This document shows, piece after piece, positions 1-51,695 of a DNA stretch of 64,000 nt. Below the pieces are notes generated by a model. It did no database searches and was not told the origin of the DNA. It saw only the letters and a list, made by a program, of their open reading frames with translations. Source of the stretch: Tubulanus polymorphus (Eukaryota; Animalia; Nemertea). The stretch is from contig NC_134026.1 in the NCBI RefSeq assembly GCF_964204645.1, positions 13,514,050 through 13,578,049 of the forward strand. Reading direction: 5' to 3'. Each line of letters starts with the position of its first letter. Position 1 is the first letter of the stretch. Made by a program: the position numbers and the translations under genes.

Positions 1-334
1 ACTAACAAGCAATGGTTAGTTAGTTCCGAGGTTGTTAGAATGAGAATCTACTGTGTATATGTTTCATCGTAGAATCTATTTCACGCAAATGGGATAAACT
101 TTATACATATTTCTGGACCATGCTTTTCGTTACGTCAGTGCGCATACAATGCATCCAACGACTGGTCGCCCCGGGAATATCATTCATGAAAAACTAAAAT
201 TATCTTCGGCAAAAATTAGAAACAAGTGAATCTATATCGCCTTTAGTTAGCTTAATGACCTGACATATTTGAGCAATGTAATTCAATGTAATTGGTACCA
301 AAAAGAATTATACTTTTTGCAATCACACCCCTAA

Positions 335-3300
335 GTGATGAGAAACAACTCCTTCCGAGGAAAGATTATCCTTCAATAAAATGTCCTTGATCAGTGAAGA
401 AGAGACCCATCGAGCCACTGTGTCCCAAGAAACATCACCCTTCAGGTGATCCAGCAGCAGAAATAACCGCTCCTTCAAACCCCTTTGTGAAGCAGAGCGA
501 TCTAAATAGAAACGCAACGCCCATACAGGACATTACTTCCTGTCCGTAAGACCCGGTTCAACTCAATGTTTTAGGGCTTCAATTCGCCATTGACGATCAA
601 CCGAGCCTTTGCCTAAAACTCCAAAGCAGGCAGCAGCAAAGCAAATTCCTTCGCTGGCCCGGAGACAATATGACCTCGTCGAACTGAAAGTGCATGAATT
701 TCAGAACAACGGATCCGAGCAAGCCAAGAAAAGCAGGAATAGTGTCTTTTTGACAAATTCGCAAATGACGCTTCGGAAAGAGATTCAAATGGAGCCTCCA
801 TTAACTTCTTCAAAATTACATGGTGGAACTATTCTCGTTGCCTGAGGCCGGGAAATAGAAAACCCTGCAACAAGCTGGGATATCCGATGATCAGCTATTA
901 TGTTTGGCTGTCCAGAAGTACTCAATGTGTGGGAAATCACGGAGTGGTAACCTTTTATAGATATAACCTGCAGACCTTTTACTACAAATAGATGCAGTAA
1001 ACAAACCGACACACAGAGGGTGAGCATGAATCAATTTCCCCTGTAGCACACCAATCTGCAAAATGACCCCATTTGCAATCGTAAATGGTACTTGTCGATG
1101 GCCGCTTAGATCCTGTGATAAAAGGGGCAGCCTATTCTGAAAAGCCTGAAGATGACAAGGATCGCTGGACAATGGCCAGGCATGCAGATTAAACCACTTG
1201 CTGTTCCAGGATGATGCCGAAAGTTCCCCTCAGACAGAAGTGATGGGAAATTTGGAAGAATCCTGGTGTTGTCGCACAGTAGGTTGAGAAGTGGTAGGAA
1301 CCACTTCTGAGCTGGCCAACATGGTGCTACCAGAACTATGTTGCAATTGAATGATCTCTCAACTTGATCCAGCAGGCGCAGGAGGACTGGTGTGGGCGGG
1401 AACGCATACGCATGCATCCCCGACCAGTCCTGAGAAGGCAACAAGCCTTCAAGCTTCCACGTCCGGAAACGGGTAAACAAACAGTGAACACCTCCGATTG
1501 AACCGTTAGGAAAACAGATCCAGCCGCGGATTGCCAAACATGTCTCGAACCCGATTCGCTACTTCTTGGTGGAGAAACCATTCTGTCACAATAGCCTGAC
1601 CTCAGCGAGAAAGAGCATCGGCCATCAGGTTCCTTTTCCCTGCTTAATGTGCCACAGTCAGGGAAACGCCGGAAATTTATGTGGTTGGTGGCCTCGTAGC
1701 GAGACCACCTCCCCGCTTTGACTTGGTTCTTTAGATGCTCCCCCTACTGTTGGGGACTGGCATCCATGAATATATGAACTGGAGCCTCTAACGGGGCCAG
1801 AGATACCCTGCGACGAAGAATCGTAGTTGTCGCCCACCAATGAAGATCTGGAATTAGAGCGGTTGGAGGTACGGGAATCAAGGTTTCCCAGTCGCCCTTC
1901 GATTGAGACCAGAAGACCTTCCAATATTGTTGCAAGCACCTGTTTCTGAGGCGGCTTAATGGCACCACCAGACCCATGGAGCTGATGGAGCCTAGAAGCC
2001 GTGGCCAGTAACGAGCCGTTCTCGGGGTTGTGGGAACTCCCGCTACAGCTTCAAGAAGTTTGGCTACTCTCCACCCATGGACGGAAAGACTTTGCCGATT
2101 AGGAGATCGAAGTCCATGCCGAGATAAGTGAACTGTTGGGCCGGCGTCAACTGAGATTTTCACCTGTTTACGCGGAACCCTAGCTGATGGACTAAGTCCA
2201 AGACTGAGGTCATTGCCTCCCGACATTCTTGAGCCGAGTTAGCCACTTTTAACCAGTTGTCAGGGTAAACAAACTGTCGAACAGGACTGAAGTAGCTTCT
2301 GAATGGACTTAACCAACTTGGTAAAACCCACGGGGCCGTACTGAGGCCAAATAGAAGACACCTGAACTCGAACTGGCAGCCTTTCCACTTTAACCTGAGA
2401 AATAACCGAGATTTTGGGTGAATTGGAACCTGAAAATAAGCATCTTTCAGGTCCGATGAAGCTGCCATTGACCAGGACAGAGCCCTTAAATCACATCCCT
2501 GGGTTTGTCATCCAGAACCTTGGAATGTCTAGGTGCCGATTGAGGGATGACAGATCTATCACCATCCGTTGACCCCCTGTGGCCTTTGGTACCATGAATA
2601 TTCGAGAAAACCAGCCGGGAGAAGTTTCGTTGCAAACTGGTTCTATCGCTCCCATCTCTGCCAATTCCTTGAGAGCCAGACAGATTAAGGCCTCCTGACC
2701 TGGTTTTGGCCGCATGTCAGAGCTGACCTCATCAGGCGCGGTCGCCTTCGGAAACGGCAGCCCGCTACAAACTCCCACTGGTGCCAAAATTCATTTCGAG
2801 TTTTTCCGAAAGGAAGAGCCCCTTTTTGGAGCCTTGCCCTTGCCCCGATACGAACCGGAACTGATATGACCGGACGAGGCTTGATACGATTGATGGAGCT
2901 GTGCGCTAGTTCTCCAACCGGCATCTGTAGCCGCCTGAGACAGTGCCGAAGTTTGAGTTGGTGCTGTTTGAGTCCTTTCCGGACCAAGAATGCTTTTTCC
3001 ACGGAGTCCGGATGGTGGATTTGGTCTGGACCTCCCGAATCTTCCTCAGCTTGGCGGAAACAACGGAGCCCACCAACTGGAGAAGAGACACGAAGACGTC
3101 CCCAATGGAGCTCTCAGTAATGAATTGGACACTATATCTGGTAGATGAGTTTTGGAACTGGAGTCCTTAACTGACTGACAGGAGGCTTACACAAGATTAG
3201 CCTGACCCCAAACCGACAACGGAATGACACAAAAGATTGATTAATCCGGTCCATTCCCTCTAGTTTTAGGGCAACTGATGAGAGTTTAGCAAAGCTCGCC

Positions 3301-3532
3301 CCCAACACCTTAAGTGCCATATCCTGAAACGAACCAACCATGGTAAGATTCACCAGGATTGACGTCATGGCAACCAAACCGGACTTAGGCAAACGAATAC
3401 CCGACTGTGCTGAACCAGTATTCGCGCTGATCAAAGTATAATCAGCATCCAGGCAGCTATGACTATGATCCACAGTGCCTGGAGTTGCATAATATGCCGA
3501 GCGAAATGCACTTATAGGCAGAACGGTTGAAC
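335..3532 (-). mobile_element. Degenerate, truncated DIRS (tyrosine-recombinase) retrotransposon: gag C-term, RT, RNase H, MT-like and YR fragments
   Basis: Frameshifted ORF pieces with RT motifs (FSRIFMVPKATGG, DLKDAYFQVPI, FGLSTAP), RNase H (IFMDAS), MT-like DWSGMHAYAFPP and YR (RLFLLLDH...DTVARWV). Colinear with the copy at 49746-59342. Confidence 0.92.
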
Positions 3533-4000
3533 GGTTGTGGCTATACGACAAACTAACCACAAGAAGATTTCTGTGTTTCTGCTTCTTTATTGCTGTTTCT
3601 GATGTGTCTAAATTTCGACTTTTGAACTGCTCTAATATACTAAATTCTTATCATTTTATCTTCAAAACCTATTATCACTAATTATATTAAACATTCATCA
3701 TCATGTGAATTCGTCAGAAAGTCTAGATAAAGTGTAGCGCAGGTTTTAAAATGTCATTAGTCTAATCAATGAAAGTTTTACATGTTACACTTGTTCGCTT
3801 CTCAACATTCTCCGCTTCCTGATAATCCTACGGATTATCATGTTTTTAATCTAAAATTTCAGCAATCAATTCAGCTAAAATACAATTATATACATATTTA
3901 TGAAATAAATTCTACACATGTTTTACAAATCTAAAATTCTAGTTACTAATAAACATGTAATTTTAATCCTTTTAAATGAATCAATAATAATCTACAATTG

Positions 4001-4385
4001 CTACTCGGTAGTTTCTATCGGACATAATTTTGCAATTGGTCTAACCAATGTTGTTTTACCAACTTGTAACTTAACTACTCGAACATGCCCGTCTTTCCCT
4101 GGAAAGATCTCTAACACGCGCCCTAAAGGCCATTTACCCCTTGGTGTATCTGACGATATTACTAAAACGACATCCCCGACTTTAAAATCTCGTTTAGTAT
4201 CAGTCCATTTTTTGCGCGAATTCAACTGTGGTAACCATTCTCTCATCCATCTTTGCCAAAAATGTTTCATAAGTTCTTAGACACGTCGCCATCTTCTTCG
4301 TAGACTGAAATCCGTTTCATCTACAGTATCTGGCGCGAACTCACCTCCCATTTGACCGAACAAGAAATGATTTGGTGTCAACGGA
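4001..4385 (-). pseudogene. BEL/Pao integrase C-terminal fragment
   Basis: PLTPNHFLFGQ...FWQRWMREWLPQL...KVGDVVLV...PRGKWPLGRVLEIFPGKDGHVRVVKL...RPIAKLCPIE, with one stop. Cut off exactly at the palindromic element's left end. Confidence 0.9.
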
Positions 4386-4470
4386 AGTAATTAGAAAAGT
4401 AGGCTTTCATACCAGAGGGCGTGAGGGCGAGACACCACTCATCACCACAAGTAATTTTTTTTCCTAATAA

Positions 4471-4617
4471 ATGGGAGACAGTGAGTTCCAACTAGAAAAC
4501 AATAATGTCAATAAAAATCAATATTATTGTCAATATTGTAAAAAATACATCGATAAACCTTACATGGAAAATGTTAGAAATTATATTGATTCACTAGAAA
4601 TAAAAGATACAAATTAA
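4471..4617 (+). CDS. 48-aa ORF with CxxC (YYCQYCKKYID), probable truncated zinc finger
   Basis: Hand translation: MGDSEFQLENNNVNKNQYYCQYCKKYIDKPYMENVRNYIDSLEIKDTN*. TAAATG start; followed by a T-tract. Confidence 0.45.
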   Translation: MGDSEFQLENNNVNKNQYYCQYCKKYIDKPYMENVRNYIDSLEIKDTN

Positions 4618-4693
4618 ATTTTTTTTTGTTGCTTTTTTCCAAAAATAAACACACTTTTTAATATAAAAGCGCTAATAAAATGATAAAATTGTT

Positions 4694-5054
4694 CAATATT
4701 AAAAGTGTGAGTAAAGTGTGAGTAAAATAATTTAGATTTTCAATATTAAAAGTGTGAGTAAAGTGTGAGTAAAATAATAAAATTGTTCAATATTAAAAGT
4801 GTGAGTAAAGTGTGAGTAAAATAATAAAATTGTTCAATATTAAAAGTGTGAGTAAAGTGTGAGTAAAATAATTTAGATTTTCAATATTAAAAGTGTGAGT
4901 AAAGTGTGAGTAAAATAATAAAATTGTTCAATATTAAAAGTGTGAGTAAAGTGTGAGTAAAATAATTGAGATTTTCAATATTAAAAGTGTGAGTAAAGTG
5001 TGAGTAAAATAATTGAGATTTTCAATATTAAAAGTGTGAGTAAAGTGTGAGTAA
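4694..5054 (+). repeat. 47-bp tandem repeat, 8 units (CAATATTAAAAGTGTGAGTAAAGTGTGAGTAAAATAA...)
   Basis: Unit starts at 4694, 4741, 4788, 4835, 4882, 4929, 4976, 5023; internal GTGTGAGTAAA dimer. Confidence 0.95.
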
Positions 5055-5070
5055 TAATTTTGTTATAAAA

Positions 5071-5727
5071 ATGAAGAAAGAAGAACCCAACTTCAAAATC
5101 GAAATCAATGAAACCAATAAATCATTTTCACAGTTTAACATTAGAAATTATATTTCAGCAACAAATTTAGTATATGGAAGACAATATAAAATTGATAATA
5201 TTACTGTAATTAATCAAATATTATTAAATGAAACATATTTAATTACTGAACTAATAGATACTTTAGATAATGGCGCCAAAAATCCTAAAATATTTAATAC
5301 AGTTTTAAATTATAAAGGTAATTTAGATGAAAACATAATAAATATTCTTAAATTTCCTTTTAATGAAAGAGAAAGTGATATAATACTTTCAAAAGGTAAT
5401 GATAGGATAGACTTAAGAATTGAAAAACGACAATTATATTATTGTAATTTTGATAATAAACAAATTATTTATAATGAAAATACATCAAATATTGAAATTC
5501 AATGTGATTTAGAAAACAATAATTCTTTTAAAGATATTGCAATTCAGTGTGATTTAGAAAATAGTAAATCTTTTAAACATATCGCAATTCAATGTGATTT
5601 AGAAAATGAATTCAAAAGATTTAATCCTAATGAAAAAATTCATTGTTATTGCGGAGGTAAATATTCAAAATCACATAAATCAAAGCATTACCAAACAATT
5701 AAACATAAAAACTGGTGTAAAGAGTAA
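5071..5727 (+). CDS. 218-aa protein with three IxIQCDLEN repeats and a C-terminal CxCGGKY..H..H zinc-finger-like motif
   Basis: Open in both arms. First ATG is 5071 (track start 5047 is a GTG inside the repeat). C-term CYCGGKYSKSHKSKHYQTIKH resembles small ZnF motifs of large-DNA-virus/Polinton proteins (recognition from memory). Confidence 0.75.
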   Translation: MKKEEPNFKIEINETNKSFSQFNIRNYISATNLVYGRQYKIDNITVINQILLNETYLITELIDTLDNGAKNPKIFNTVLNYKGNLDENIINILKFPFNERESDIILSKGNDRIDLRIEKRQLYYCNFDNKQIIYNENTSNIEIQCDLENNNSFKDIAIQCDLENSKSFKHIAIQCDLENEFKRFNPNEKIHCYCGGKYSKSHKSKHYQTIKHKNWCKE

Positions 5728-5785
5728 CGATTCTACATTATAATTATTGAATTGAGTTAAATGATTTAAATATCTAATAGACTGC

Positions 5786-6480
5786 TAAAATGATAAATTG
5801 TTTGACAGTTGAAATGATAAATTGTTTGACAGTTAAAATGATAAATTGTTTGACAGTTGAAATGATAAATTGTTTGACAGTTAAAATGATAAATTGTTTG
5901 ACAGTTGAAATGATAAATTGTTTGACAGTTGAAATGATAAATTGTTTGACAGTTGAAATGATAAATATTTTGACAGTTGAAATGATAAATATTTTAACAG
6001 TTGAAATGATAAATTGTTTGACAGTTGAAATGTTAAATTGTTTGACAGTTGAAATGATAAATTGTTTGACAGTTGAAATGATAAATTGTTTGACAGTTGA
6101 AATGATAAATTGTTTGACAGTTGAAATGATAAATTGTTTGACAGTTGAAATGATAAATTGTTTGACAGTTGAAATGATTTGACAGTTGAAATGATAAATT
6201 CTTTGACAGTTGAAATGATAAATTGTTTGACAGTTGAAATGATAAATTGTTCGACTGTTGAAATGATTTGACAGTTGAAATGATAAATTGTTTGACAGTT
6301 GAAATGATAAATTGTTTGACAGTTGAAATGATAAATTGTTTGACAGTTGAAATGATAAATTGTTTGACAGTTGAAATGATTTGACAGTTGAAATAATAAA
6401 TTGTTTGACAGTTGAAATGATAAATTGTTTGACAGTTGAAATGATAAATTGTTTGATAGTTGAAATGATAAATTGTTTAG
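5786..6480 (+). repeat. 24-bp minisatellite (TTGAAATGATAAATTGTTTGACAG), about 29 units
   Basis: Directly visible; occasional shortened units. Confidence 0.95.
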
Positions 6481-6602
6481 CTGTAAATTTAATTGTTATT
6501 TGATTTAATCATTTAAAAGTTTAATATTTTAAAAATGATTTTAAAATATTTAAATAAAAACAAGCAAATGTTTATTAATTTTCTAATTTCTTTCTTAAAT
6601 AA

Positions 6603-6821
6603 ATGGATGGTTTCATTCCAACTGGGAAAAGTGATTTAAAACATTATTTAGTTGCTGGAGGTTTAATTTTAGCTGCGCTTTACTTTTATTATGAAAATAT
6701 TTCAAAAGATTTAATAAATGAAAATAATGAATTAAGCAAGAAATTAAAGAAGTTAAATACTAAAAATGGAAATAATTATAAAAACGGTAATAATCACAAG
6801 AAAGTTGTTGAATCAGATTAA
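6603..6821 (+). CDS. 72-aa small membrane protein (one TM helix plus basic coiled tail)
   Basis: HYLVAGGLILAALYFYY hydrophobic segment; TAAATG start; open in both arms. Confidence 0.6.
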   Translation: MDGFIPTGKSDLKHYLVAGGLILAALYFYYENISKDLINENNELSKKLKKLNTKNGNNYKNGNNHKKVVESD

Positions 6822-6857
6822 ATAGTGAATTAATCTATTAAAATCTTTTCTTATTAA

Positions 6858-7139
6858 ATGAGTGAAAATATATTAAATTTGTTAAATCTTATTTACAGAA
6901 ATCAAGAGAAAATGAAATTAATTATGATGATTTCAGGGTTACTTTCATTTTCAGTTTATAGTTTGAAACAATTGTTTCATTTTTATGATGATTGTAAAAT
7001 AAAATATATTGAATTGAAAAATAATATCAATTACATTTCAGATAGAATGAATAATATTAAAAGATGCGAAATTTGTAGTAAAAAATACAAGACGGAAAAA
7101 GGATTTAGAAATCATAAAATTGGGCATAAATTGGAATGA
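6858..7139 (+). CDS. 93-aa protein with hydrophobic segment and C-terminal C2H2 zinc finger
   Basis: CEICSKKYKTEKGFRNHKIGH = C-x2-C-x12-H-x3-H; TAAATG start; identical protein in the other arm. Confidence 0.75.
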   Translation: MSENILNLLNLIYRNQEKMKLIMMISGLLSFSVYSLKQLFHFYDDCKIKYIELKNNINYISDRMNNIKRCEICSKKYKTEKGFRNHKIGHKLE

Positions 7140-7274
7140 TTAAATAACAAATTAAAGTAAAGAATTTAAAAAAAATCTCATTTATTGTGTGAAATTGACT
7201 AAAATTGAACTAAAATAGACAACTTTGTTAATCTAATGAAAGTTAAGTTATATTTTAGTTGAATTGTAATTAAA

Positions 7275-7563
7275 GTTAGTTGCAACTAACTTCAACTAGA
7301 ATTTAACTAGAATTGACTAAAAATACACTAAATCAACTGTCTTGTTAATCTTTTTAATTTTTTATTCAATTCTAGTTAAATTCTAGTTGAAGTTAGTTGC
7401 AACTAACTTCAACTAGAATTTAACTAGACTGTTAGTTGCAACTAACTTCAACTAGAATTTAACTAGAATTGAATAAAAAATTAAAAAGATTAACAAGACA
7501 GTTGATTTAGTGTATATTTAGTCAATTCTAGTTAAATTCTAGTTGAAGTTAGTTGCAACTAAC
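7275..7563. other. Central nested-palindrome/hairpin junction of the fold-back element
   Basis: Self-complementary 16-mer GTTAGTTGCAACTAAC at 7275, 7392, 7431 and 7548; perfect 58-bp palindrome at 7371-7428. Confidence 0.9.
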
Positions 7564-7698
7564 TTTAATTACAATTCAACTAAAATATAACTTAACTTTC
7601 ATTAGATTAACAAAGTTGTCTATTTTAGTTCAATTTTAGTCAATTTCACACAATAAATGAGATTTTTTTTAAATTCTTTACTTTAATTTGTTATTTAA

Positions 7699-7980
7699 TC
7701 ATTCCAATTTATGCCCAATTTTATGATTTCTAAATCCTTTTTCCGTCTTGTATTTTTTACTACAAATTTCGCATCTTTTAATATTATTCATTCTATCTGA
7801 AATGTAATTGATATTATTTTTCAATTCAATATATTTTATTTTACAATCATCATAAAAATGAAACAATTGTTTCAAACTATAAACTGAAAATGAAAGTAAC
7901 CCTGAAATCATCATAATTAATTTCATTTTCTCTTGATTTCTGTAAATAAGATTTAACAAATTTAATATATTTTCACTCAT
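7699..7980 (-). CDS. 93-aa C2H2 zinc-finger protein (mirror copy)
   Basis: Identical translation to 6858-7139. Confidence 0.75.
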   Translation of the reverse strand: MSENILNLLNLIYRNQEKMKLIMMISGLLSFSVYSLKQLFHFYDDCKIKYIELKNNINYISDRMNNIKRCEICSKKYKTEKGFRNHKIGHKLE

Positions 7981-8016
7981 TTAATAAGAAAAGATTTTAA
8001 TAGATTAATTCACTAT

Positions 8017-8235
8017 TTAATCTGATTCAACAACTTTCTTGTGATTATTACCGTTTTTATAATTATTTCCATTTTTAGTATTTAACTTCTTTAATTTCTT
8101 GCTTAATTTATTATTTTCATTTATTAAATGTTTTGAAATATTTTCATAATAAAAGTAAAGCGCAGCTAAAATTAAACCTCCAGCAACTAAATAATGTTTT
8201 AAATCACTTTTCCCAGTTGGAATGAAACCATCCAT
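8017..8235 (-). CDS. 72-aa small membrane protein (mirror copy)
   Basis: Two amino-acid differences (D>H, E>K) from 6603-6821. Confidence 0.6.
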   Translation of the reverse strand: MDGFIPTGKSDLKHYLVAGGLILAALYFYYENISKHLINENNKLSKKLKKLNTKNGNNYKNGNNHKKVVESD

Positions 8236-8357
8236 TTATTTAAGAAAGAAATTAGAAAATTAATAAACATTTGCTTGTTTTTATTTAAATATTTTAAAAT
8301 CATTTTTAAAATATTAAACTTTTAAATGATTAAATCAAATAACAATTAAATTTACAG

Positions 8358-9800
8358 CTAAACAATTTATTATTTCAACTGTCAAACAATTTATCATTTC
8401 AACTGTCAAACAATTTATCATTTCAACTGTCTAACAATTTATTATTTCAACTGTCTTATCATTTCAACAGTCGAACAATTTATCATTTCAACTGTCAAAC
8501 AATTTATCATTTCAACTGTCAAACAATTTATCATTTCAACTGTCAAACAATTTATCATTTCAACTGTCAAACAATTTATCATTTCAACTGTCAAACAATT
8601 TATCATTTCAACTGTCGAACAATTTATCATTTCAGCTTTCAAACAATTTATCATTTCAACTGTTAAACAATTTATTATTTCAACTGTCAAATCATTTCAA
8701 CAGTCGAACAATTTATCATTTCAACTGTCAAATCATTTCAACAGTCGAACAATTTATCATTTCAACTGTCAAACAATTTATCATTTCAACTGTCAAACAA
8801 TTTATCATTTCAACTGTCAAACAATTTATCATTTCAACTGTCAAACAATTTATCATTTCAACTGTCAAAGAATTTATCATTTCAACTGTCAAAGAATTTA
8901 TCATTTCAACTGTCAAACAATTTATTATTTCAACTGTCTTATCATTTCAACTGTTAAAATATTTATCATTTCAACTGTCAAAATATTTATCATTTCAACC
9001 GCCAAACAATTTATCATTTCAACTGTCAAACAATTTATCATTTCAACAGTCGAACAATTTATCATTTCAACTGTCAAACAATTTATCATTTCAACTGTCA
9101 AACAATTTATCATTTCAACTGTCAAACAATTTATCATTTCAACTGTCGAACAATTTATCATTTCAGCTTTCAAACAATTTATCATTTCAACTGTTAAACA
9201 ATTTATTATTTCAACTGTCAAATCATTTCAACAGTCGAACAATTTATCATTTCAACTGTCAAACAATTTATCATTTCAACTGTCAAATCATTTCAACAGT
9301 CAAAGAATTTATCATTTCAACTGTCAAACAATTTATCATTTCAACTGTTAAACAATTTATCATTTCAACTGTCAAACAATTTATCATTTCAACTGTCAAA
9401 CAATTTATCATTTCAACTGTCAAACAATTTATCATTTCAGCTTTCAAACAATTTATCATTTCAACTGTTAAACAATTTATCATTTCAACTGTCAAACAAT
9501 TTATCATTTCAACTGTCAAACAATTTATCATTTCAACTGTCAAACAATTTATCATTTCAACTGTCAAACAATTTATCATTTCAACTGTCAAACAATTTAT
9601 CATTTCAACTGTCAAACAATTTATCATTTCAACTGTCAAACATTTTATCTTTTCAACAGTCGAACAATTTATCATTTCAACTGTCAAACAATTTATCATT
9701 TCAACTGTCAAATCATTTCAACAGTCAAAGAATTTATCATTTCAACTGTCAAACAATTTATCATTTTAACAGCCAAACAATTTATTACTTCAACAGTCTA
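8358..9800 (-). repeat. 24-bp minisatellite, about 60 units (mirror array, expanded)
   Basis: Reverse complement of the 5786-6480 unit; roughly twice as long, with higher-order duplicated blocks. Confidence 0.95.
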
Positions 9801-9871
9801 TTAGATATTTAAATCATTTAACTAAATTCAATAATTATTTGACTATTTAATTTATTTTCAATGTAGAATTG

Positions 9872-10528
9872 TTACTCTTTACACCAGTTTTTATGTTTAA
9901 TTGTTTGGTAATGTTTTGATTTATGTGATTTTGAATATTTACCTCCGCAATAACAATGAATTTTTTCATTAGGATTAAATCTTTTGAATTCATTTTCTAA
10001 ATCACATTGAATTGCGATATGTTTAAAAGATTTACTATTTTCTAAATCACCCTGAATTGCAATATCTTTAAAAGAATTATTGTTTTCTAAATCACATTGA
10101 ATTTCAATATTTGATGTATTTTCATTATAAATAATTTGTTTATTATCAAAATTACAATAATATAATTGTCGTTTTTCAATTCTTAAGTCTATCCTATCAT
10201 TACCTTTTGAAAGTATTATATCACTTTCTCTTTCATTAAAAGGAAATTTAAGAATATTTATTATGTTTTCATCTAAATTACCTTTATAATTTAAAACTGT
10301 ATTAAATATTTTAGGATTTTTGGCGCCATTATCTAAAGTATCTATTAGTTCAGTAATTAAATATGTTTCATTTAATAATATTTGATTAATTACAGTAATA
10401 TTATCAATTTTATATTGTCTTCCATATACTAAATTTGTTGCTGAAATATAATTTCTAATGTTAAACTGTGAAAATGATTTATTGGTTTCATTGATTTCGA
10501 TTTTGAAGTTGGGTTCTTCTTTCTTCAT
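9872..10528 (-). CDS. 218-aa IQCD-repeat / zinc-finger protein (mirror copy)
   Basis: One amino-acid change (IQCD>IQGD) relative to 5071-5727. Confidence 0.75.
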   Translation of the reverse strand: MKKEEPNFKIEINETNKSFSQFNIRNYISATNLVYGRQYKIDNITVINQILLNETYLITELIDTLDNGAKNPKIFNTVLNYKGNLDENIINILKFPFNERESDIILSKGNDRIDLRIEKRQLYYCNFDNKQIIYNENTSNIEIQCDLENNNSFKDIAIQGDLENSKSFKHIAIQCDLENEFKRFNPNEKIHCYCGGKYSKSHKSKHYQTIKHKNWCKE

Positions 10529-10544
10529 TTTTATAACAAAATTA

Positions 10545-10813
10545 TTACTCACACTTTACTCACACTTTTAATATTGAAAATCTCAATTATTTTACTCACA
10601 CTTTACTCACACTTTTAATATTAAACAATTTTATCATTTTACTCACACTTTACTCACACTTTTAATATTGAAAATCTCAATTATTTTACTCACACTTTAC
10701 TCACACTTTTAATATTAAACAATTTTATCATTTTACTCACACTTTACTCACACTTTTAATATTGAAAATCTAAATTATTTTACTCACACTTTACTCACAC
10801 TTTTAATATTGAA
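10545..10813 (-). repeat. 47-bp tandem repeat, 6 units (mirror array)
   Basis: Reverse complement of 4694-5054, two fewer units. Confidence 0.95.
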
Positions 10814-10925
10814 CAATTTTATCATTTTATTAGCGCTTTTATATTAAAAAGTGTGTTTATTTTTGGAAAAAAGCAAAAAAAAAATTTAATTTGTATCTTT
10901 TATTTCTAGTGAATCAATATAATTT

Positions 10926-11042
10926 CTAACATTTTTCATGTCGTGATTTTTGGTATTTATCGATGTATTTTTTACAATATTGACAATAATATTGATTTTT
11001 ATTGACATTATTGTTTTCTAGTTGGAACACACTGTCTCCCAT
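10926..11042 (-). CDS. 38-aa ORF, zinc-finger-like (mirror variant of 4471-4617)
   Basis: MGDSVFQLENNNVNKNQYYCQYCKKYIDKYQKSRHEKC*; an indel changes the C-terminus relative to the left arm. Confidence 0.4.
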   Translation of the reverse strand: MGDSVFQLENNNVNKNQYYCQYCKKYIDKYQKSRHEKC

Positions 11043-11127
11043 TTATTAGGAAAAAAAATTACTTGTGGTGATGAGTGGTGTCTCGCCCTCACGCCCTCTG
11101 GTATGAAAGCCTACTTTTCTAATTACT

Positions 11128-12760
11128 ATCAGCTCCGTTTCAGGGCTACAGATAGGTCTAGGGAAGATACTTGATACACCAAGTATCGAGTTGTTTGAAA
11201 AATACCTTTATTCCGACAAACATACAGATGAATGGAGAGACAAAATGTGAACACAATAGCCAGTTGCGACTCATCTCCGAAGCTAAAAATGATCAATCTT
11301 TTGGGTAAAAGCCATCGACTTTGACATCCCTGATCAATGATGAGCAAAAATTTAGTTTTTGAGGGGTATTGAGTGCAACAGCCCCAGGAAATGAAGGTAA
11401 TGTTGCTTTCCATAGTTCAGAATTGAGGAACTGGATCCAACGGTTAAACTAACGCTTAGACTTAAAATACAAATAGAAACTAAAATACATAAAGAAAGAA
11501 AAACTTACGTCACAACAATTATTGGTAGGTGCACTAGAGGACTTCACACATATTACTACACGGACACATGCCACTAGTCTCAGGAACAGTTCCCACATGC
11601 TTACTGCCCAGGGTTGAGGAAATCTCAGTATGCGCTAATAACTTTCCATCATCCTCATCATCATCATCATCATCCAAACTATTACTTCCAGTCACCCCAA
11701 AACTCTCAGTTTCACTAATAGAAACAGGAAGTTGCATGGCATTTGTGCAGACCGCATAACTATTTTGATTTCTTTTTTTAAGGGTGTCAGTAACTGACTC
11801 ATCAAAGTGTGAGTTTCTTTGTATGTTGATAATTTCAGGAACGCATTGTATGTCAAGCGAACCATTCGTAGTGATTGTCAATTGAAAGTTGTCAATTGTA
11901 GCTTCATCATCATCTGATTCAGATTCTGAAGATGAATTATGGCGTCTGCGTCGATAAATATGCTGAAATGCCTTGATGACTCCTTCAGCACGTACAACAT
12001 TTTTAGCTAATGCACTGAATGAACGGACTCCTCCAGTGATCCCACTACATCTATTTTGATCATGTCTAATGCTCCAAAGCACATCAGGAATCAAGTGTTC
12101 TTCATTTTCAAATTGAGCATTTTCGTGTATATTAAGAGCTTCCCCGTCAATTGTTTCTTCACCATTTATAGAAATTATCCGTTTACGGTTGTCACAAGAA
12201 TTAATGCGATCAATAACAACACCATTTGCTTTACCTGCTCCTTGTTTCATCTTGAAATGCAGATATATGGGCTAGATAGATAAAAAAAATAAAAAAAGAA
12301 GTTTAGCATGACATTTATAAGATTGTGATCATACCATCCAGTGTTTTATCAATGTGCTGAAAGATTTTCACAATTCTTACATGACCGCTTACACATTTTC
12401 ACAATTCTTTGCAAATACCCTGGCATTAAAAAACAATTTTCAAGTGATTCCTATGTGCAAGACATATTGTTCAGAATTAAATGCAGTCTCAATTTAATGA
12501 GATTTGGCATCTACCTAATACAAGCCGCTTGGAATATTGCAAGGAATTCTAGCCACATACACACAGGCAACAGGAATCTTGCCATCCATAGCTTTAAATT
12601 TTCTGGATCAATTGTGTGCACAGACTGGTCTATAACTTCCTGATTTTTCCTGTTTCTTAAAGGTATGCAATCAGACCGGCCAAGTGCAACCATAAATTTT
12701 CCAGAAAATGTGGGATTTGAATGGTGGATGATTATAGATTTAAAGTCAACATTCAACACT
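11128..12760 (-). pseudogene. Unidentified coding-like region (238-aa acidic/Ser-rich ORF 11534-12250 plus stop-interrupted frames either side)
   Basis: Long ORF with natural-looking composition. Flanking frames (e.g. NSELWKATLPSFPGAVAL.., MDGKIPVACVYVARIP..) contain stops. Family not recognised. Confidence 0.35.
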
Positions 12761-19472: not shown

Positions 19473-20880
19473 AACTAAGGGTCGAGGGACACCATGCCCA
19501 CTTACAAAATATGCCTACAAAATATGCATACTAATATTAAATGGAAATACTAAGTTATCCTACTATTCAACACCCCCTGGTGACCATATGCAAAAAGCAA
19601 ATACCTTGAAACTTACTACAATCATAGAACATGTTATGAGCTACAAGTTTGCAATTGGTTGTGGTAACAATATATGCCTAGGTACCACTATAACATGGAA
19701 ATACTAAGTTATAGTACTATTCAACACCCCCTGGTGACCATATACAAACACCAATGACCTTGAAACTCAGCACAATCATAGAACATGTCATGAGTTAAAA
19801 TTTTTCTCATGCTGATAGGCACTTGGAGGATACAAATATGTGAACGATCAAGGTAATTGATTAAAGCATCTTCAAAATTTCCATTTAAAACTTCAAAATG
19901 TGTTAAGTGCTGATTATGCAAACAAAATTGGCTGCCAGTCAGCCATCTTGATTTTAACAGGGCCAATTTTTGGGCCGAAGATATGTCTAGGGTAGATACA
20001 TGTATAAACCAAATATCAAGACATTACCCTGCAGCGTCTTCTAAACTTCACAAAATAACTGGATGAGAACGGACGGACGGACGACGACTGATAATCACTC
20101 TAACCCATCAGCTCCGCTGACTTTCGTCCACAGCGGAGCTGAAAATGGCTCCGTAACTGTATAGGCCTTGGTCCATAGAACATTCATACCAAATTTGGAA
20201 TTGATCTGATTAAAACTGTAGGACTAGTGTCAATTTGAAGAAATAAAAACTCCACCCCCAGGGGTGCCCCTTGGGGGACGAATCCAAGAAATTGCTCTGT
20301 AACGAAAGAACGAACTACAATGACCTCACCCCCTAACCCATCAGCTCAGCTGACCTTCGGTCACAGCGGAGCTAAAAATGTCAAAGTAATAATTTTCTGT
20401 TGAAATGCAGCTCATGAAAATTACAGATCAAATCAAATTAGGAAACGCAAACTATCCCAGAACTAGGGGTCCAGGGACACCATGCCCACTTGGAAAGTGG
20501 TTTCAAATGCTCAACAATCCAACAGTATCAATGTTCAACGCCCCCTGGTGACCATATTCATAAAGCAATGACCTTGAAACTAACCACATTCATAGAACAT
20601 GTCAGCAGCAGCTTTTGTAATCGATTGTGATAACAAAATATGCCTCGTTACCAATTTAATATGGAAATACTAAGTTATTCTACTATTCAACGCCCCCTGG
20701 TGACCATATTCAAAACCCAATGTCCTTGAAACTCACAAAAATCGTTAAACATGTCATGAGCTACAACTTTGCAATTGGTCATGGTAACAAAATATGCCTA
20801 GGTACCAAGATAATAAGGAAATACTAAGTTATTCTACTATTCAATGCCCCCTAGTGACCATATAGAATAACTTATGTCCT
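19473..20880 (-). mobile_element. Cluster of HINE-like (Helentron-associated) non-autonomous elements
   Basis: AACTAGGGGTCCAGGGACACCATGCCCACT ends, 154-bp cores, (GGAC)n microsatellite, terminal stem-loops at about 20108-20144 and 20341-20377. Confidence 0.75.
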
Positions 20881-20916
<36 letters not shown>

Positions 20917-21187
20917 CTTTATTTGACAAAAAATTATAATGTTAAAGGTTTGCTCTGGTACAAAGTACATTAATAGCAACACCATAATAATAATTGTTCA
21001 CAAGAACAATTGATCTGGACTATTAGGGGATGGTCCGTTTATGATGGCTAGTACCATCTTTGTACCACTGCCCCCTTTATCCACCCCGATCTTTGCCCAT
21101 ATTTCGTCATGAAATTCTGGGGTTTAACTGATTTTTCATCATCAGTTTTTCTACTGACTTTTGTATTAATAGCTCTATTGATGTTAC

Positions 21188-26175: not shown

Positions 26176-27755
26176 TGTTATTACGAATGTGACTGAGCTG
26201 TCCAGTGAACTGTATATTTCCGAATTCAATACTATTAGTTATTCACGGTCTGTGACCGTCATATTCGCTGCATATAAATATCTGTGTATTAATAAATTGT
26301 GTGGCATTTTGTAAGATCAAACTGATTGTTGTACCGAGTTCTTGTTCTCTGGTCGTCTCTATCATCTAATACTACATTTTGGTGCCGTGACGCAGCGAAA
26401 TTCCGGAAAATGCCACCCAAGGAAGGAGATCCAGAGAGCCAGACGGTGTGCAAACAAGGGTGTAGTAACAAAACAAGTAGAAAGATTCGACCTCAGCTCA
26501 AGTAGCGAACCTAACGTGCTGGAATTGGAATCTGCGAAATCGTTGAGTCGGAAGATTGCTGTTATTCATGATTTGGTTCTACAAATATTAGAGCTGGTGG
26601 ATGAAACCGCATTGGAAGAGACAGTGAATGAGTTCCACTCATATCTGGAAGAGCTTGAGAAAAAGAAATTTTTGATTGGTAAGTCCATTCAAAAGTATGC
26701 TACACAATTTCACGAAAATGGAAAATTTAAAACAAAAATGCAACATAGTAGTCGTTTGCGGAAACTTGACTTGCCTCAATTCTCCGGTAAAATATTAGAC
26801 TTTCGGCCCTTTTGGGATAGTTTTAAAGCCGCAATACACGATGATATACATCTAAGTGATGTTCAGAAGTTTACCTATAGGAGAGCGCAACTCGAGGGTG
26901 AGGCTATGCGGGCTATTGCTGGACTCTCGTTGACGTCTGATTATTATACAGCTGCCTAGAAATACTAAATAAGCGTTTCGCTCAGGATTCAAAAGTTGTG
27001 AATGCCTACATGGCTATCAGCTCAGCTGCCAAATTTTTATTTCGATACTGTTGATTGTGCAAATAATTCTTTCGTAAATGTCAGTTTGATCGAATACTTG
27101 TTACTGTATACATAAGGCTATGGATATTGATAGCTTTAATTCTTTGAAGATGAATTGCCTGTTGAGAGTGAAGGTTCGTTTATACAGATTTGTAAAACAC
27201 GAATTTGCAGAGAATCAATGGGTGTTCGGTATTCAGAGTGAAGGGTTTGGTGATATTATTCATTTCTTACGTTCCAATTCGAAGCCACGACCAGTTTTGG
27301 TAAGACAGTTGAAACTTTTTTTGTCTGATGGCTTCCTTCGTTGCGGGGGGAGAATACAGAATGCTAGGCTTCCAGTGAAAATGAAGTACCCAACCCTGTT
27401 GCCGAGAACCCATCGATTCACGTTTTTGTATCTTCGTTATGCCCATTGTATTAAGGTAATGCATGAAGGTGTTAATGAAACAATAGCATTTGTTCGATAG
27501 AAATATTGGGTACCACAATTTCGTCCTCGTATTACCTCTTTGATACACCTCTTTGATACTCTTTGATGTGCCTTGTATTAAGGCTGGCACTGGTAAACCA
27601 TTCACGCTACCCGATCAGGCTCCATCACCCTTTTCAGTAGTTGGTTTTGATTATACAGGCGCTTTAATGGTAAGAACTGAATCATCTGATGCAAAGGTTT
27701 ATATCTGTCTTATTACATGCGCTATTACTAGAGCATTACATTTAGAACTTGTAAG
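26176..27755 (+). mobile_element. Internally deleted BEL/Pao element (5' LTR about 26176-26376, tRNA-His PBS, gag, integrase fragment)
   Basis: TG..CA LTR candidate; TGGTGCCGTGAC at 26380; LRKLDLPQFSGKILDFRPFWDSFKAAIH (DUF1759-like); LRCGGRIQNA, GFDYTGAL, TRALHLELV. Confidence 0.85.
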
Positions 27756-28532
27756 AGTCTTGCAAGGGGAAAATTGTGATTTTGATAATCTTAATCTAAG
27801 TAATCCCATATCATAAAGAAAGTGATATTCATGTCATAAATCGTCATAAAAGTGTTTTTCTAATCTGAAATCAATATACTAGCCACTATCATCAGTTTTT
27901 AAAAAATGACGCATGCGCATTGACGACGAATGAAACGCAAATAGCGCTGAGTTGCCCGCACACGGGAGCACAGTTGGCGCTGCGTAAAAATAAATTGCCC
28001 ATGGGCAAAGTGTCGTTTACCTTGAAAGCTAGAGGTTGTTTGGAGTAAGGGCATTGCTTGAAAAATCTGTTCAATTCGTGACTTCAAAGTTCCACAAGTT
28101 TACATTGTACTTTATCTTTCTTAAAGAATTATTTTGAGGTCAAATAAGACCAAAGATACATTTGGTTACGGTCCACGTCCAAAATTTTGTAGGGTACAGG
28201 TAGGCGTGGCAGGGAAATTATTTCATATTTTCCAAAAAAATATGTTTCACAATATGAAAAAAATATTCAAATAAGGCCATCCCAAAATAATTGTCTGTTT
28301 GCCGTAACACAGACTCAACTTTTCAACTTTTCAGGATGAGTTGGTAGGTAAGAAAAAATTTTTTTTGCTAAATTTTTGGGCAAAAAAAAACAAATATATC
28401 ACCTTTTTACATGGAAACAATATCACAAAAATCATTTACGTTGTGAAAGGGAAATTTGTCTAATAGCGTAGATTTCGAGAATTATTCTAAAATTATAACT
28501 TCGTCCAGAGCGATCAATGTATTAATAGATTT

Positions 28533-29063
28533 TTGAAATCAAAACAGAACTCAGAACCTCAACCGAAACCTGTTGAAGATGGAATTGATCTATTCATTTC
28601 ATTACCGTATATTGGTAACCCGTCAATCCTATTTGCCCGAAAATTAAAATATCTATTTAAAAGGAATTTTGAAATCAACTTGAAATGTGCATTCACTACG
28701 ACCAAAATTAAGAATTTTTTCTCTTTGAAATGTGCTACCCCTAAATCGCTGAAGGCTAAAGTCATATATAAATTTAATTGTTTATGTGATATAAACACTT
28801 CCTATATTGGGAAAACTAAACGACATTTGGCCATCAGGATTAAGGAACACAGATCAAAGACTTCTGCGATTGGACAACATCTCGCAATTTGTCACACTTG
28901 TGATCAGGAATTCAGTAACAACAAATTCAAAATTCTAGACAAAGGATCATCTGATCTCGACTGTAAAATTAGGGAGGCCCTGTTTATTAAAGCGCAACGA
29001 CCCTCTTTAAATCAACAATTATTTCAAAACGGCTCATCCTTTATCCTAAATGTATTCAAATAA
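28533..29063 (+). pseudogene. 5'-truncated Penelope ORF: thumb/linker plus GIY-YIG endonuclease
   Basis: Same protein sequence as the C-terminus of 32268-33896. Confidence 0.9.
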
Positions 29064-29176
29064 TTAGTTTGTTATTAAATACTTGGTTGGTAATTAGCTT
29101 AGAATTTAGCACTTGTAATTTTGTAACTTATGTTGTATATAAACCTGTAGTTTAATCATTTGATTCACTTGTATTT

Positions 29177-29213
29177 CACCTGATGAGGGGATATGATCCC
29201 GAAAACGTTCGTG
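29177..29213 (+). ncRNA. Minimal type I hammerhead ribozyme
   Basis: CAC-CTGATGA-G-GGGAT(ATG)ATCCC-GAAA-ACGT-TC-GTG: catalytic core, stem II, palindromic stem III (AACGTT), stem I CAC/GTG. Confidence 0.85.
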
Positions 29214-29241
29214 TTAATAAACTGTATTTACTCATTAGAAA

Positions 29242-31255
29242 ATGAGGTTTTTAATGTTATCGCTTCTATGGTTATTCGGATATTTGAACTCTCTTCCTAA
29301 GATCTATTTCTACTGTGCGAAACAGAGAGATGTGTACGTCAAAGACTTCCGCAAATGTGAAAAACTGTATCTCAAATGGACTAAACTACGCTTGGATTTA
29401 TCTTACTTTCAAAGATGCATGGAATTACGAATCTGCCCGAAGTTTTTATTATTCAAACCTCCGAAACTGAGAGCGTATGCAAGTAATGATAATCTCAAAC
29501 TCGAAATCTTGAAGAATCAAATCGAAAATGTTAAAACCGAATTATCTAAAACCAACAGTAAATTGAAGAAAATCAAATCCGATTTATGCGAGAAATTGAC
29601 CTGGATTCAAACAATCATTTGGCTCACTAGACTTAACCAGAAAGGCAGGAAACTAACTTCGGAAACACAGCAACGTCATGAACGCAAGCTTTTAAACTTG
29701 TGGAAAGATCAGCGTCACCCAGCACCGGATTGCTTAATCAATAGATCAAATTATCAACTATCCCTAGAAGAAACTGAGATACTACGTTACGGCTTAAAGC
29801 ATCACATTCTTCCGAAAAATATCAACGAAATCGACCTTAAATCACGTATTGAAAAAACTGTTTACCACAAAAATAGGACTATATCTGGCGGCGAACCGAA
29901 TGTGAATAACTCTTTCCTTGAAAGTATTAGACATGCGACCATCTCATTTATCAACAGCGCTAAATCAGTATGTGGCTCGACCTGGAACCGACGTTTCTAC
30001 CGTACGATTGAAAAACTTCGAAAAAACTAGGACATTAAGATCTGCTCATTTGACAAAGGCAACGGCATTGTTATTTTGGACTCTAACGAATATTTCGATA
30101 AATTAGATAAAATTGTATTTGATAAAAGTAAATTTACTGAAATCAAAAATGTGAGAAAGAATCACCCTGTCATATCTAATGAAACCAAAATCTGCGGATT
30201 TCTGAGAAAACATGTGAAACAGTATGTAAGTTCAGAAATATTTGATTCTATCTACCCAAGCGGTAGCCAACCTGGTAAATTATATGGTTTGTGCAAAGTG
30301 CATAAAGATAACTTTCCATTTCGACCCGTTGTATCAATGATCGACACTGCTGAATATAACCTGGCCAAATATCTCGATAAAATCATTAAACCACATATAC
30401 CGTCTAAATTCATGTTAAATAGCACTTGGGAGTTCCTTAAAAAACTGAAACAATTCGTTTTTAAACCTTCTGATATTCTAATAAGTTTTGATGTAGAGTC
30501 ACTTTTCACTAATGTTCCATTGAAAGAAACCATTGATATAGTTTCCGATTATATATATGCTTCCGACTCTAAACCTACATATGATCAGGCTACATTCAAA
30601 GAATTACTTAAAATCGCAACTTCGGGTTTGTTTATGTACAATGATCGTATTTTCAAGCAAGTTGATGGGGTCACCATGGGCAGCCCCTTAGGCCCAACCT
30701 TAGCGAACTTTTGTCTTGCCCATTTTGAAAACTTGCTCCTCTCCAAAACTAATTACAAACCGACATTATACCTGAGATACGTGGACGATATTTTCGGCAT
30801 ATTTCGAAATGTATCCAGTTATAGACTATTTTTTGAAGAATTGAATCGCCTCCATTCTAACCTTAAATTCACTTTTGAACTAGGTCCTAATCTATTACCT
30901 TTTCTCGATACCGAAATACAAATTCCGTTAGAAACCGGTAGTGACTTTATATCTCGAGTGTACAGGAAAGCTTCCAACACAGGCCTACTTTTGAACTTCA
31001 ACGCCATGTGTCCGTATAAATGGAAAATAGGACTCATCAATACCATGCTTTTTCGTGCCTACAATATTTGCAGTGATTGGACCATCTTTTCAGAATCAGG
31101 AATTCAGTAACAACAAATTCAAAATTCTAGACAAAGGATCATCTGATCTCGACTGTAAAATTAGGGAGGCCCTGTTTATTAAAGCGCAACGACCCTCTTT
31201 AAATCAACAATTATTTCAAAACGGCTCATCCTTTATCCTAAATGTATTCAAATAA
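29242..31255 (+). pseudogene. Penelope RT-EN ORF, copy 1 (in-frame TAG at 30028-30030, 449-bp deletion at about 31095)
   Basis: ORFs 29242-30030 and 30076-31110 are in one frame; the deletion removes most of the endonuclease. Confidence 0.9.
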
Positions 31256-31368
31256 TTAGTTTGTTATTAAATACTTGGTTGGTAATTAGCTTAGAATTTA
31301 GCACTTGTAATTTTGTAACTTATGTTGTATATAAACCTGTAGTTTAATCATTTGATTCACTTGTATTT

Positions 31369-31405
31369 CACCTGATGAGGGGATATGATCCCGAAAACGT
31401 TCGTG
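31369..31405 (+). ncRNA. Minimal type I hammerhead ribozyme (copy 2)
   Basis: Identical to 29177-29213. Confidence 0.85.
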
Positions 31406-31433
31406 TTAATAAACTGTATTTACTCATTAGAAA

Positions 31434-33896
31434 ATGAGGTTTTTAATGTTATCGCTTCTATGGTTATTCGGATATTTGAACTCTCTTCCTAAGATCTATT
31501 TCTACTGTGCGAAACAGAGAGATGTGTACGTCAAAGACTTCCGCAAATGTGAAAAACTGTATCTCAAATGGACTAAACTACGCTTGGATTTATCTTACTT
31601 TCAAAGATGCATGGAATTACGAATCTGCCCGAAGTTTTTATTATTCAAACCTCCGAAACTGAGAGCGTATGCAAGTAATGATAATCTCAAACTCGAAATC
31701 TTGAAGAATCAAATCGAAAATGTTAAAACCGAATTATCTAAAACCAACAGTAAATTGAAGAAAATCAAATCCGATTTATGCGAGAAATTGACCTGGATTC
31801 AAACAATCATTTGGCTCACTAGACTTAACCAGAAAGGCAGGAAACTAACTTCGGAAACACAGCAACGTCATGAACGCAAGCTTTTAAACTTGTGGAAAGA
31901 TCAGCGTCACCCAGCACCGGATTGCTTAATCAATAGATCAAATTATCAACTATCCCTAGAAGAAACTGAGATACTACGTTACGGCTTAAAGCATCACATT
32001 CTTCCGAAAAATATCAACGAAATCGACCTTAAATCACGTATTGAAAAAACTGTTTACCACAAAAATAGGACTATATCTGGCGGCGAACCGAATGTGAATA
32101 ACTCTTTCCTTGAAAGTATTAGACATGCGACCATCTCATTTATCAACAGCGCTAAATCAGTATGTGGCTCGACCTGGAACCGACGTTTCTACCGTACGAT
32201 TGAAAAACTTCGAAAAAACTAGGACATTAAGATCTGCTCATTTGACAAAGGCAACGGCATTGTTATTTTGGACTCTAACGAATATTTCGATAAATTAGAT
32301 AAAATTGTATTTGATAAAAGTAAATTTACTGAAATCAAAAATGTGAGAAAGAATCACCCTGTCATATCTAATGAAACCAAAATCTGCGGATTTCTGAGAA
32401 AACATGTGAAACAGTATGTAAGTTCAGAAATATTTGATTCTATCTACCCAAGCGGTAGCCAACCTGGTAAATTATATGGTTTGTGCAAAGTGCATAAAGA
32501 TAACTTTCCATTTCGACCCGTTGTATCAATGATCGACACTGCTGAATATAACCTGGCCAAATATCTCGATAAAATCATTAAACCACATATACCGTCTAAA
32601 TTCATGTTAAATAGCACTTGGGAGTTCCTTAAAAAACTGAAACAATTCGTTTTTAAACCTTCTGATATTCTAATAAGTTTTGATGTAGAGTCACTTTTCA
32701 CTAATGTTCCATTGAAAGAAACCATTGATATAGTTTCCGATTATATATATGCTTCCGACTCTAAACCTACATATGATCAGGCTACATTCAAAGAATTACT
32801 TAAAATCGCAACTTCGGGTTTGTTTATGTACAATGATCGTATTTTCAAGCAAGTTGATGGGGTCACCATGGGCAGCCCCTTAGGCCCAACCTTAGCGAAC
32901 TTTTGTCTTGCCCATTTTGAAAACTTGCTCCTCTCCAAAACTAATTACAAACCGACATTATACCTGAGATACGTGGACGATATTTTCGGCATATTTCGAA
33001 ATGTATCCAGTTATAGACTATTTTTTGAAGAATTGAATCGCCTCCATTCTAACCTTAAATTCACTTTTGAACTAGGTCCTAATCTATTACCTTTTCTCGA
33101 TACCGAAATACAAATTCCGTTAGAAACCGGTAGTGACTTTATATCTCGAGTGTACAGGAAAGCTTCCAACACAGGCCTACTTTTGAACTTCAACGCCATG
33201 TGTCCGTATAAATGGAAAATAGGACTCATCAATACCATGCTTTTTCGTGCCTACAATATTTGCAGTGATTGGACCATCTTTTCAGAAGAAATCAATTTCT
33301 TGAAAAATCTGTTTAAATCTAATGCGTTTCCTATTCATGTCATCGATCAATGTATTAATAGATTTTTGAAATCAAAACAGAACTCAGAACCTCAACCGAA
33401 ACCTGTTGAAGATGGAATTGATCTATTCATTTCATTACCGTATATTGGTAACCCGTCAATCCTATTTGCCCGAAAATTAAAATATCTATTTAAAAGGAAT
33501 TTTGAAATCAACTTGAAATGTGCATTCACTACGACCAAAATTAAGAATTTTTTCTCTTTGAAATGTGCTACCCCTAAATCGCTGAAGGCTAAAGTCATAT
33601 ATAAATTTAATTGTTTATGTGATATAAACACTTCCTATATTGGGAAAACTAAACGACATTTGGCCATCAGGATTAAGGAACACAGATCAAAGACTTCTGC
33701 GATTGGACAACATCTCGCAATTTGTCACACTTGTGATCAGGAATTCAGTAACAACAAATTCAAAATTCTAGACAAAGGTTCATCTGATCTCGACTGTAAA
33801 ATTAGGGAGGCCCTGTTTATTAAAGCGCAACGACCCTCTTTAAATCAACAATTATTTCAAAACGGCTCATCCTTTATCCTAAATGTATTCAAATAA
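31434..33896 (+). CDS. Full-length Penelope RT + GIY-YIG ORF interrupted by a single TAG (32220-32222)
   Basis: KLRKN*DIKICSFDKGNGIVILD joins the two track ORFs in frame; the DKG motif is typical of PLE RT N-termini. Confidence 0.88.
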
Positions 33897-51690: not shown

Positions 51691-51695
51691 TTGAG

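Follow-up and report, generated by a model that had tools for sequence, protein, structure and literature searches.

A 6.7-kb gene-bearing palindrome with Polinton-like ends in the genome of the nemertean Tubulanus polymorphus

What kind of DNA reads as one inverted repeat over 6.7 kb and carries genes in both of its arms? Such a structure lies at positions 4386–11127 of a 64,000-nt stretch of the genome of Tubulanus polymorphus (assembly GCF_964204645.1, contig NC_134026.1, positions 13,514,050 to 13,578,049 of the forward strand). This stretch was analysed at its full length and is referred to here as the window; coordinates are those of the window. The palindrome is a genuine mobile element in an animal genome, and it belongs to a family that is repeated many times and whose end is sharply defined. 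We consider it probable, if by no means settled, that the element is a palindromic, multi-copy, non-autonomous snap-back derivative of a Polinton/Maverick, the link to Polintons being drawn from its AGT..ACT ends and the style of its genes.

The element (4386–11127, no strand) was delimited by inverted-repeat detection, arm alignment and GC content. Its 6,742 bp form a single inverted repeat with arms at 4386–7407 (3022 bp) and 7431–11127 (3697 bp), which are separated by 23 nt. The GC content is 22.6%, compared with 35.9% and 38.7% in the 1-kb flanks. The ends are AGTAATTAG and CTAATTACT, and either end reads AGTAATTAG going inwards. The left terminus is located at 4386–4394 on the plus strand (sequence and arm alignment), and the right terminus at 11119–11127 on the minus strand, where the family boundary is marked by many unlike flanks that start after 11127 in public contigs. 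The end motif AGTAAT..ATTACT agrees with (AGT)2 at five of six bases. A subterminal core at 4430–4475 (plus strand) mirrors 11038–11083 (minus strand) in the arm alignment, and these two are its only matches in the window. The preliminary description of this DNA had reported a continuous inverted repeat, strong AT-richness relative to the flanks and identical ends, and all three are borne out by alignment and composition.

The centre of the element, or hinge (7275–7563, no strand), was defined by a repeated 16-mer, a palindrome, a duplication and a folding test. The self-complementary 16-mer occurs four times, at 7275, 7392, 7431 and 7548, in nested inverted repeats. Positions 7371–7428 form a perfect 58-bp palindrome with no spacer, and the segments 7392–7430 and 7431–7469 are a 39-nt tandem duplication (38/39 identical). 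Folding of 7260–7580 yields z = -31.5 against 100 shuffles. The 23-bp spacer described earlier does separate the arms, but it is no unique loop, being part of the 39-bp duplication at the spacer-less 58-bp palindrome. The simplest reading is a spacer-less hinge that the 39-bp duplication would have made asymmetric later. The 16-mer is also present at 29 viral loci that have nothing else in common with the element, and these matches were treated as chance. One viral contig (L017, 3001–3089) contains it three times at a spacing of 36–37 nt and another (L013/L014/L021) three times, amid GTTAG-rich repeats; they are otherwise unlike the element.

The two arms are not exact copies. In their alignment outside the tandem arrays, 1929 columns match, 13 hold substitutions and 33 are gaps, which fall at three sites (10, 2 and 21 bp). 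The tandem-repeat scan located 47-bp and 24-bp units in both arms, in keeping with the two arrays per arm noted before. The 47-bp array has 8.1 units in the left arm (4676–5054, plus strand) and 6.1 units in the right arm (10545–10829, minus strand), and the 24-bp array has 29.7 units (5788–6478, plus strand) and 62.0 units (8360–9798, minus strand), with variant 24-bp units ordered differently in the left and the right arm. Long open reading frames (ORFs) across the 24-bp arrays were rejected as genes; they arise from the repeat unit and differ between the arms. A read fold-back would not create the arm indels and the differences in array copy number, and the palindrome is therefore not such a fold-back.

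Three public runs from one study (X1–X3, contigs only; X1 may be the assembled sample) were compared with the element. Over 10900–11560, 449, 217 and 132 contigs aligned in the three runs, with identities spread over 85–100%. The summed contig depth in X1 is 11,724–161,031 within the element (10900–11127), with the maximum at the right subterminal core (94,329–161,031), versus 41.6 on the flank. The depth step falls at the terminus, from 12,316 (11107–11129) to 49 and then to 41.6. Summed contig depth is no copy number, and its ratios to the flank, which indicate orders of magnitude only, are approximately 300 for the tip, 3,900 for the core, 590 and 11–127 for two of the genes described below (ORF72 and ORF93), 36 for the hinge and 7 for 7408–7430; the summed X1 depth over 6480–7430 is 275–24,509. 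Beyond 11127, nine X2 contigs and six X3 contigs continue with agreement of only 0.44 and 0.49, and therefore represent different insertion sites that share the same end; the contigs of these two runs do not cover the right flank of this locus. Diverged contigs retain the order ORF72–ORF93–hinge (6480–7430); a contig of X3 extends across the centre of the hinge (7332–7416, 11 differences). In some relatives the DNA upstream of ORF72 is different (loose ends at 6481–6483). A mobile element had been proposed from the sequence of this copy, and the contigs agree with that proposal, showing a large family with one precise terminus at many loci. Summed depth is approximately fourfold higher over the core at 11038–11083 than over the neighbouring outer bin (11084–11127), where the common variants depart from this copy at 11086, 11091 and 11094; this suggests that several subfamilies share the subterminal core.

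Each arm contains four ORFs of 48/38, 218, 72 and 93 amino acids, all oriented towards the centre. The orientation of the four compact ORFs described earlier thus holds, and three of them are intact; the outermost is broken, with 48 versus 38 residues in the two arms. Its left copy (4471–4617, plus strand) is a zinc-finger remnant with CxxC only, as judged from the ORF list and weak zinc-finger matches below the cut-off, and the right-arm counterpart (10926–11042, minus strand; ORF list, arm alignment) is unlike it. The arms diverge at 4558–4567, within this ORF, and three of the ten family variants listed for it are synonymous, with no sign of selection. ORF218 (5071–5727, plus strand; right-arm copy 9872–10528, minus strand, ORF list) comprises an orphan N-terminal part, 15-residue repeats and a C-terminal CxCGGxY..H..T..H zinc finger. 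ORF72 (6603–6821, plus strand; 8017–8235, minus strand, ORF list) encodes a small protein whose N-terminal segment is mildly hydrophobic (Kyte-Doolittle 1.27). ORF93 (6858–7139, plus strand) has a similar hydrophobic segment (1.39) and a C-terminal C2H2-type zinc finger (zf-C2H2_jaz, E 4.7e-4, below the Pfam cut-off), and its right-arm copy (7699–7980, minus strand, ORF list) encodes an identical protein.

ORF72 and ORF93 show the pattern of purifying selection among family variants: in the variants listed, 10/17 are synonymous versus 17% expected (p = 1.3e-4), namely 6/9 in ORF72 (0.18 expected) and 4/8 in ORF93 (0.16 expected). Three of the four ORF starts lie within TAAATG, compared with 3/32 other ATGs outside the arrays, and we take this start context to resemble a poxvirus late promoter. 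Pfam and PHROGs scans of the four left-arm ORFs revealed no match to a transposase, integrase, polymerase or capsid protein, in line with the earlier remark that these, including the protein-primed polymerase pPolB, are missing. The ORF lists and the same scans indicate no enzyme of replication or integration in the element.

The C-terminal finger of ORF218 is, judged by similarity, shared with viral GIY-YIG proteins. The last 45 residues, which form the finger, are covered by 21 of the 24 best hits among 1.84 billion representative proteins, and GIY-YIG is present in 7 of 11 scanned proteins among the finger hits. The Atlas neighbours of ORF218 are mostly viral clusters, including Preplasmiviricota, with scores of 0.85–0.89 (under 0.9, hence leads only). 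No near-length homologue was found among 98 candidates. ORF218 was rejected as a degenerate GIY-YIG nuclease, with no Pfam hit and a score of 0.3 bits against a purpose-built GIY-YIG profile, a value reached by 150/200 shuffles; an AlphaFold model from the single sequence was unusable (pLDDT 36.6). The protein database search yielded no homologue of ORF72, the exact protein sequences are absent from the sequence collection searched, and the PDB and Rfam searches returned no match. The viral contigs contain no relative of ORF218, ORF72 or ORF93. The terminal 17-mer occurs at five viral loci, none of which is similar further, and these were treated as chance matches; the terminal 23-mer has no match in the metagenome contigs. 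One metagenome candidate for an ORF72 relative (L036) was rejected as a single weak 29.6-bit match around the search peptide. A 10.9-kb viral contig (L035), which by eye is virophage- or polinton-like virus (PLV)-like, carries a GIY-YIG gene as well as an ATPase and a protease-like ORF; it matches only the GIY-YIG part of protein P0023 and not the finger, and serves as context only.

The insertion site of this copy is irregular. The left flank (4001–4385, minus strand) holds what is left of a BEL/Pao retrotransposon ORF, a 3´ stub (DUF5641, E 3e-30; reading frame) that is cut at the element edge and whose frame continues right up to that edge. The right flank (11128–11560, no strand) is low-copy DNA with no continuation of the Pao element, as judged by sequence, contig depth and window comparison, and neither flank has a second match within the window. 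The preliminary description had proposed looking for duplications of the target site (TSDs) that are 6 bp long; no TSD of any length from 2 to 12 bp adjoins the ends at this copy. The lack of a TSD and a right flank that does not continue the Pao ORF indicate that this copy is not a clean insertion. Probably it is either a hybrid or bordered by a deletion, and its two arms may derive from two different insertions. Further into the right flank, a 245-codon frame with acidic runs and no Pfam match (11534–12271, minus strand) may be a host exon or an element fragment.

How could an element of this build multiply? Having no enzymes of its own, it likely spreads with the copying and insertion enzymes of a Polinton/Maverick. 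The palindromic adenovirus symmetric recombinant (SYREC) and the Kluyveromyces hairpin plasmid, a snap-back product, illustrate the type of molecule envisaged. A protein-primed polymerase of the helper would start at one end, switch template at the hinge and copy back, which would place the same end on both sides. Each single strand could fold into a ~3-kb hairpin whose open end would act as a duplex origin, and hairpin and full duplex would be two states of one cycle on the helper polymerase, short enough to out-replicate a helper of 15–25 kb. The duplex would then be inserted by the helper integrase, and after insertion the 39-bp central duplication and drifting arrays would break the perfect symmetry. 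The TSD might have been lost when the arms of two insertions were joined by recombination, or when an element end made an adjacent deletion. The non-autonomous copy-back derivative proposed in the preliminary description remains the best reading, and its two options, a copied-back module and a hairpin dimer, largely become two states of one snap-back cycle.

Two features of a Polinton-dependent element are present, the AG..CT or (AGT)2-type end (5/6 bases) and the precise terminus at many loci. A number of observations weigh against the snap-back derivative. The 5–8-bp (usually 6-bp) TSD, the defining mark of Polinton integration, is absent at this copy, and the AGTAAT end fits (AGT)2 at 5/6 bases only. 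No protein of the element matches a Polinton core protein (pPolB, integrase, ATPase, protease, major or minor capsid protein), no helper was seen and the viral and metagenome contigs searched contain no relative, and none of 25 candidates was a longer protein with the ORF218 finger, such as a packaging ATPase, although this test is weak. The selection count draws on 40 of the 98 variants and excludes a stop-codon variant of ORF72 (6819). The contig comparison covered the right junction (10900–11560) and the inner left arm up to the hinge (6480–7430); contig 8 of X1 (2496 nt) is identical to the window over 11100–11560 and spans this junction with just 28 element bases, below the 31-base bridge threshold. 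Contigs cannot show whether, or how many, other members of the family are full palindromes, and the depth at the hinge, far below that at the termini, implies that most termini belong to other structures.

The competitor that fares best, which we nevertheless judge unlikely, is a one-off collapse. The family norm would be a larger Polinton-type element with ~3-kb gene-bearing terminal inverted repeats (TIRs), or one-armed fragments, and the palindrome would be a single event, in which two TIRs or two neighbouring copies recombined at the repeated 16-mer and everything between them was deleted; it would not replicate as a palindrome. The missing TSD, the unrelated flanks, the differing arms and the relatives with other sequence upstream of ORF72 are all consistent with such an event, as is the excess of termini over hinges. 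Polinton TIRs of ~2 kb that bear genes have also been published (bioRxiv 10.1101/2025.02.07.637071). Yet repetition extends to the hinge (~36-fold the flank), across whose centre of symmetry a diverged contig runs. Among 18 of the 81 loose ends, none leads from the hinge into new coding DNA, and a perfect palindrome with no spacer is the expected product of copying back.

We regard as quite unlikely a foldback-type cut-and-paste element, mobilised in trans by a Mutator- or P/Galileo-like transposase, whose long array-bearing TIRs captured virus-like genes and whose AG..CT ends are coincidental. Foldbacks typically have long modular TIRs with variable internal tandem repeats, are non-autonomous and show rearranged flanks (PMC4079207), and the terminal copy number is very high here. 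The Mutator/Galileo-type foldbacks described there, however, have no conserved ORFs, a heterogeneous middle domain and 8–10-bp TSDs, whereas this element has selected genes inside its arms, no middle domain and no 8–10-bp TSD, and its composition and finger are of viral type. The long TIRs with internal tandem repeats are shared; non-coding arms around a variable middle are not. The earlier statement that the element is neither a classical Foldback or miniature inverted-repeat transposable element nor a standard Polinton stands: it is foldback-like in shape only, it has no core genes and it measures 6.7 kb.

It is improbable that the element is the integrated dimer of a hairpin-telomere replicon, with the four 16-mers as a resolution site cut by the telomere resolvase or nuclease of a non-Polinton helper (poxvirus- or other large-DNA-virus-like). 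The fourfold self-complementary 16-mer in nested inverted repeats and the TAAATG at three of four ORF starts would suit it, but the element encodes no resolvase or Rep protein, the 29 viral loci with the 16-mer are otherwise unlike it, and precise open ends at many genomic loci indicate an integrase. A fold-back artefact of sequencing or assembly, or a solitary inverted duplication of host DNA, both foreseen in the preliminary description, is hardly credible: no single read across the whole element was observed (contigs only), but the arm differences are structured, identical precise ends abut two unrelated flanks, the right junction recurs in an independent short-read contig, and a multi-copy family shares the precise terminus at multiple loci.

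The snap-back derivative of a Polinton can be extended to a bolder and clearly doubtful proposal. The family would consist of germ-line snap-back satellites of an endogenous Polinton virus, fully palindromic and with a dedicated, sequence-specific hinge at which they fold. They would exist by turns as a hairpin of 3 kb and a duplex of 6.7 kb, and selection would retain their own small zinc-finger and membrane-type genes to redirect or restrain the helper; the family would thus be a defective-interfering satellite, passed on by inheritance, of an animal DNA virus.

Other repeats are scattered through the window. A Penelope-like retroelement occupies 28491–33896 (RVT_1, E 3.6e-10; GIY-YIG-like tail by eye), and its partial tandem arrangement, with blocks 99–100% identical, points to a very young insertion. 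Two related DIRS-like retroelements (299–3650 and 50373–59047) are 90–95% alike with a reverse transcriptase hit; the call relies on visual inspection of overlapping ORFs and of a frame that resembles a tyrosine recombinase. Further BEL/Pao pieces at 26315–26959 and 35489–39147 (DUF1759, Peptidase_A17, RVT_1) have no blastn match to the stub that borders the element on its left and represent a different family. Dispersed repeat families with 154-bp and 141–145-bp tandem units are located at 19548–20967, 37639–38815, 48568–49732 and 60055–62338.

To our knowledge, it is the gene content of animal Polintons, and no observation, from which their protein-primed strand-displacement replication has been deduced. 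Spacer-less palindromes with Polinton-type ends are an expected product of this replication. If the palindrome family is such a product, the replication model and its cis requirements (the terminal 45 bp, the subterminal core and the hinge) become testable from genomes alone. Pipelines based on hallmark genes overlook elements of this kind; a coral survey, for example, begins from hallmark genes and requires a long minimum loop between TIRs (PMC11131425). That genes are under selection in an element devoid of enzymes suggests satellite functions. Long inverted repeats in their hundreds are also likely to give rise to deletions, as is suggested here by flanks that do not belong together, and Polinton-linked rearrangements are on record (bioRxiv 10.1101/2024.01.15.575659).

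Non-autonomous Polintons that are palindromic throughout were not described in the literature searched, which did not extend to Repbase, a possible filing place, or to most subscription papers; an Anolis survey remarks that non-autonomous Polintons are apparently absent (PMC3014272). Mavericks have (AGT)2..(ACT)2 or (AG)3..(CT)3 ends, 6-bp TSDs and genes that face the centre (PMC8097293), and their genes include those for an integrase and a protein-primed polymerase (PMC8097293; bioRxiv 10.1101/2023.08.22.554363; PMC6431247). The element resembles these animal Polintons/Mavericks in its AGT..ACT ends, long inverted repeats, intronless centre-facing genes and many copies. It differs in size (6.7 kb versus 13–25 kb), in an inverted repeat that spans the whole element (versus 46–1,447 bp), in the lack of pPolB, integrase, ATPase, protease and capsid genes and in having no TSD at this copy. 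It is thus no autonomous Polinton, for which a size of 13–25 kb with TIRs of 100–1500 bp was required in addition to these genes. Butterfly Polintons, which have ~2-kb gene-bearing TIRs and mobile polB-less copies, are closer in that genes lie within the inverted repeats, hence in two copies each, and in mobility without an own polymerase; unlike the element, they retain a unique core with hallmark genes (bioRxiv 10.1101/2025.02.07.637071). The foldbacks FB, TU, Galileo and Tetris share non-autonomy, very long arms and tandem arrays of variable length, and differ in their lack of conserved ORFs, their middle domain, their 8–10-bp TSDs and their cut-and-paste transposases (PMC4079207). In the proposed mechanism, the nearest counterparts are the snap-back products of phi29, whose protein-primed replication yields subgenomic molecules by template switching (PMC4974454), and of adenovirus 12, whose SYREC is a helper-dependent symmetric recombinant (PMC2396429); in both, as would be the case here, one terminus is copied back with dependence on a helper. 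Those products are extrachromosomal and laboratory-made, whereas the element of T. polymorphus belongs to a germ-line family with genes that appear to be under selection.

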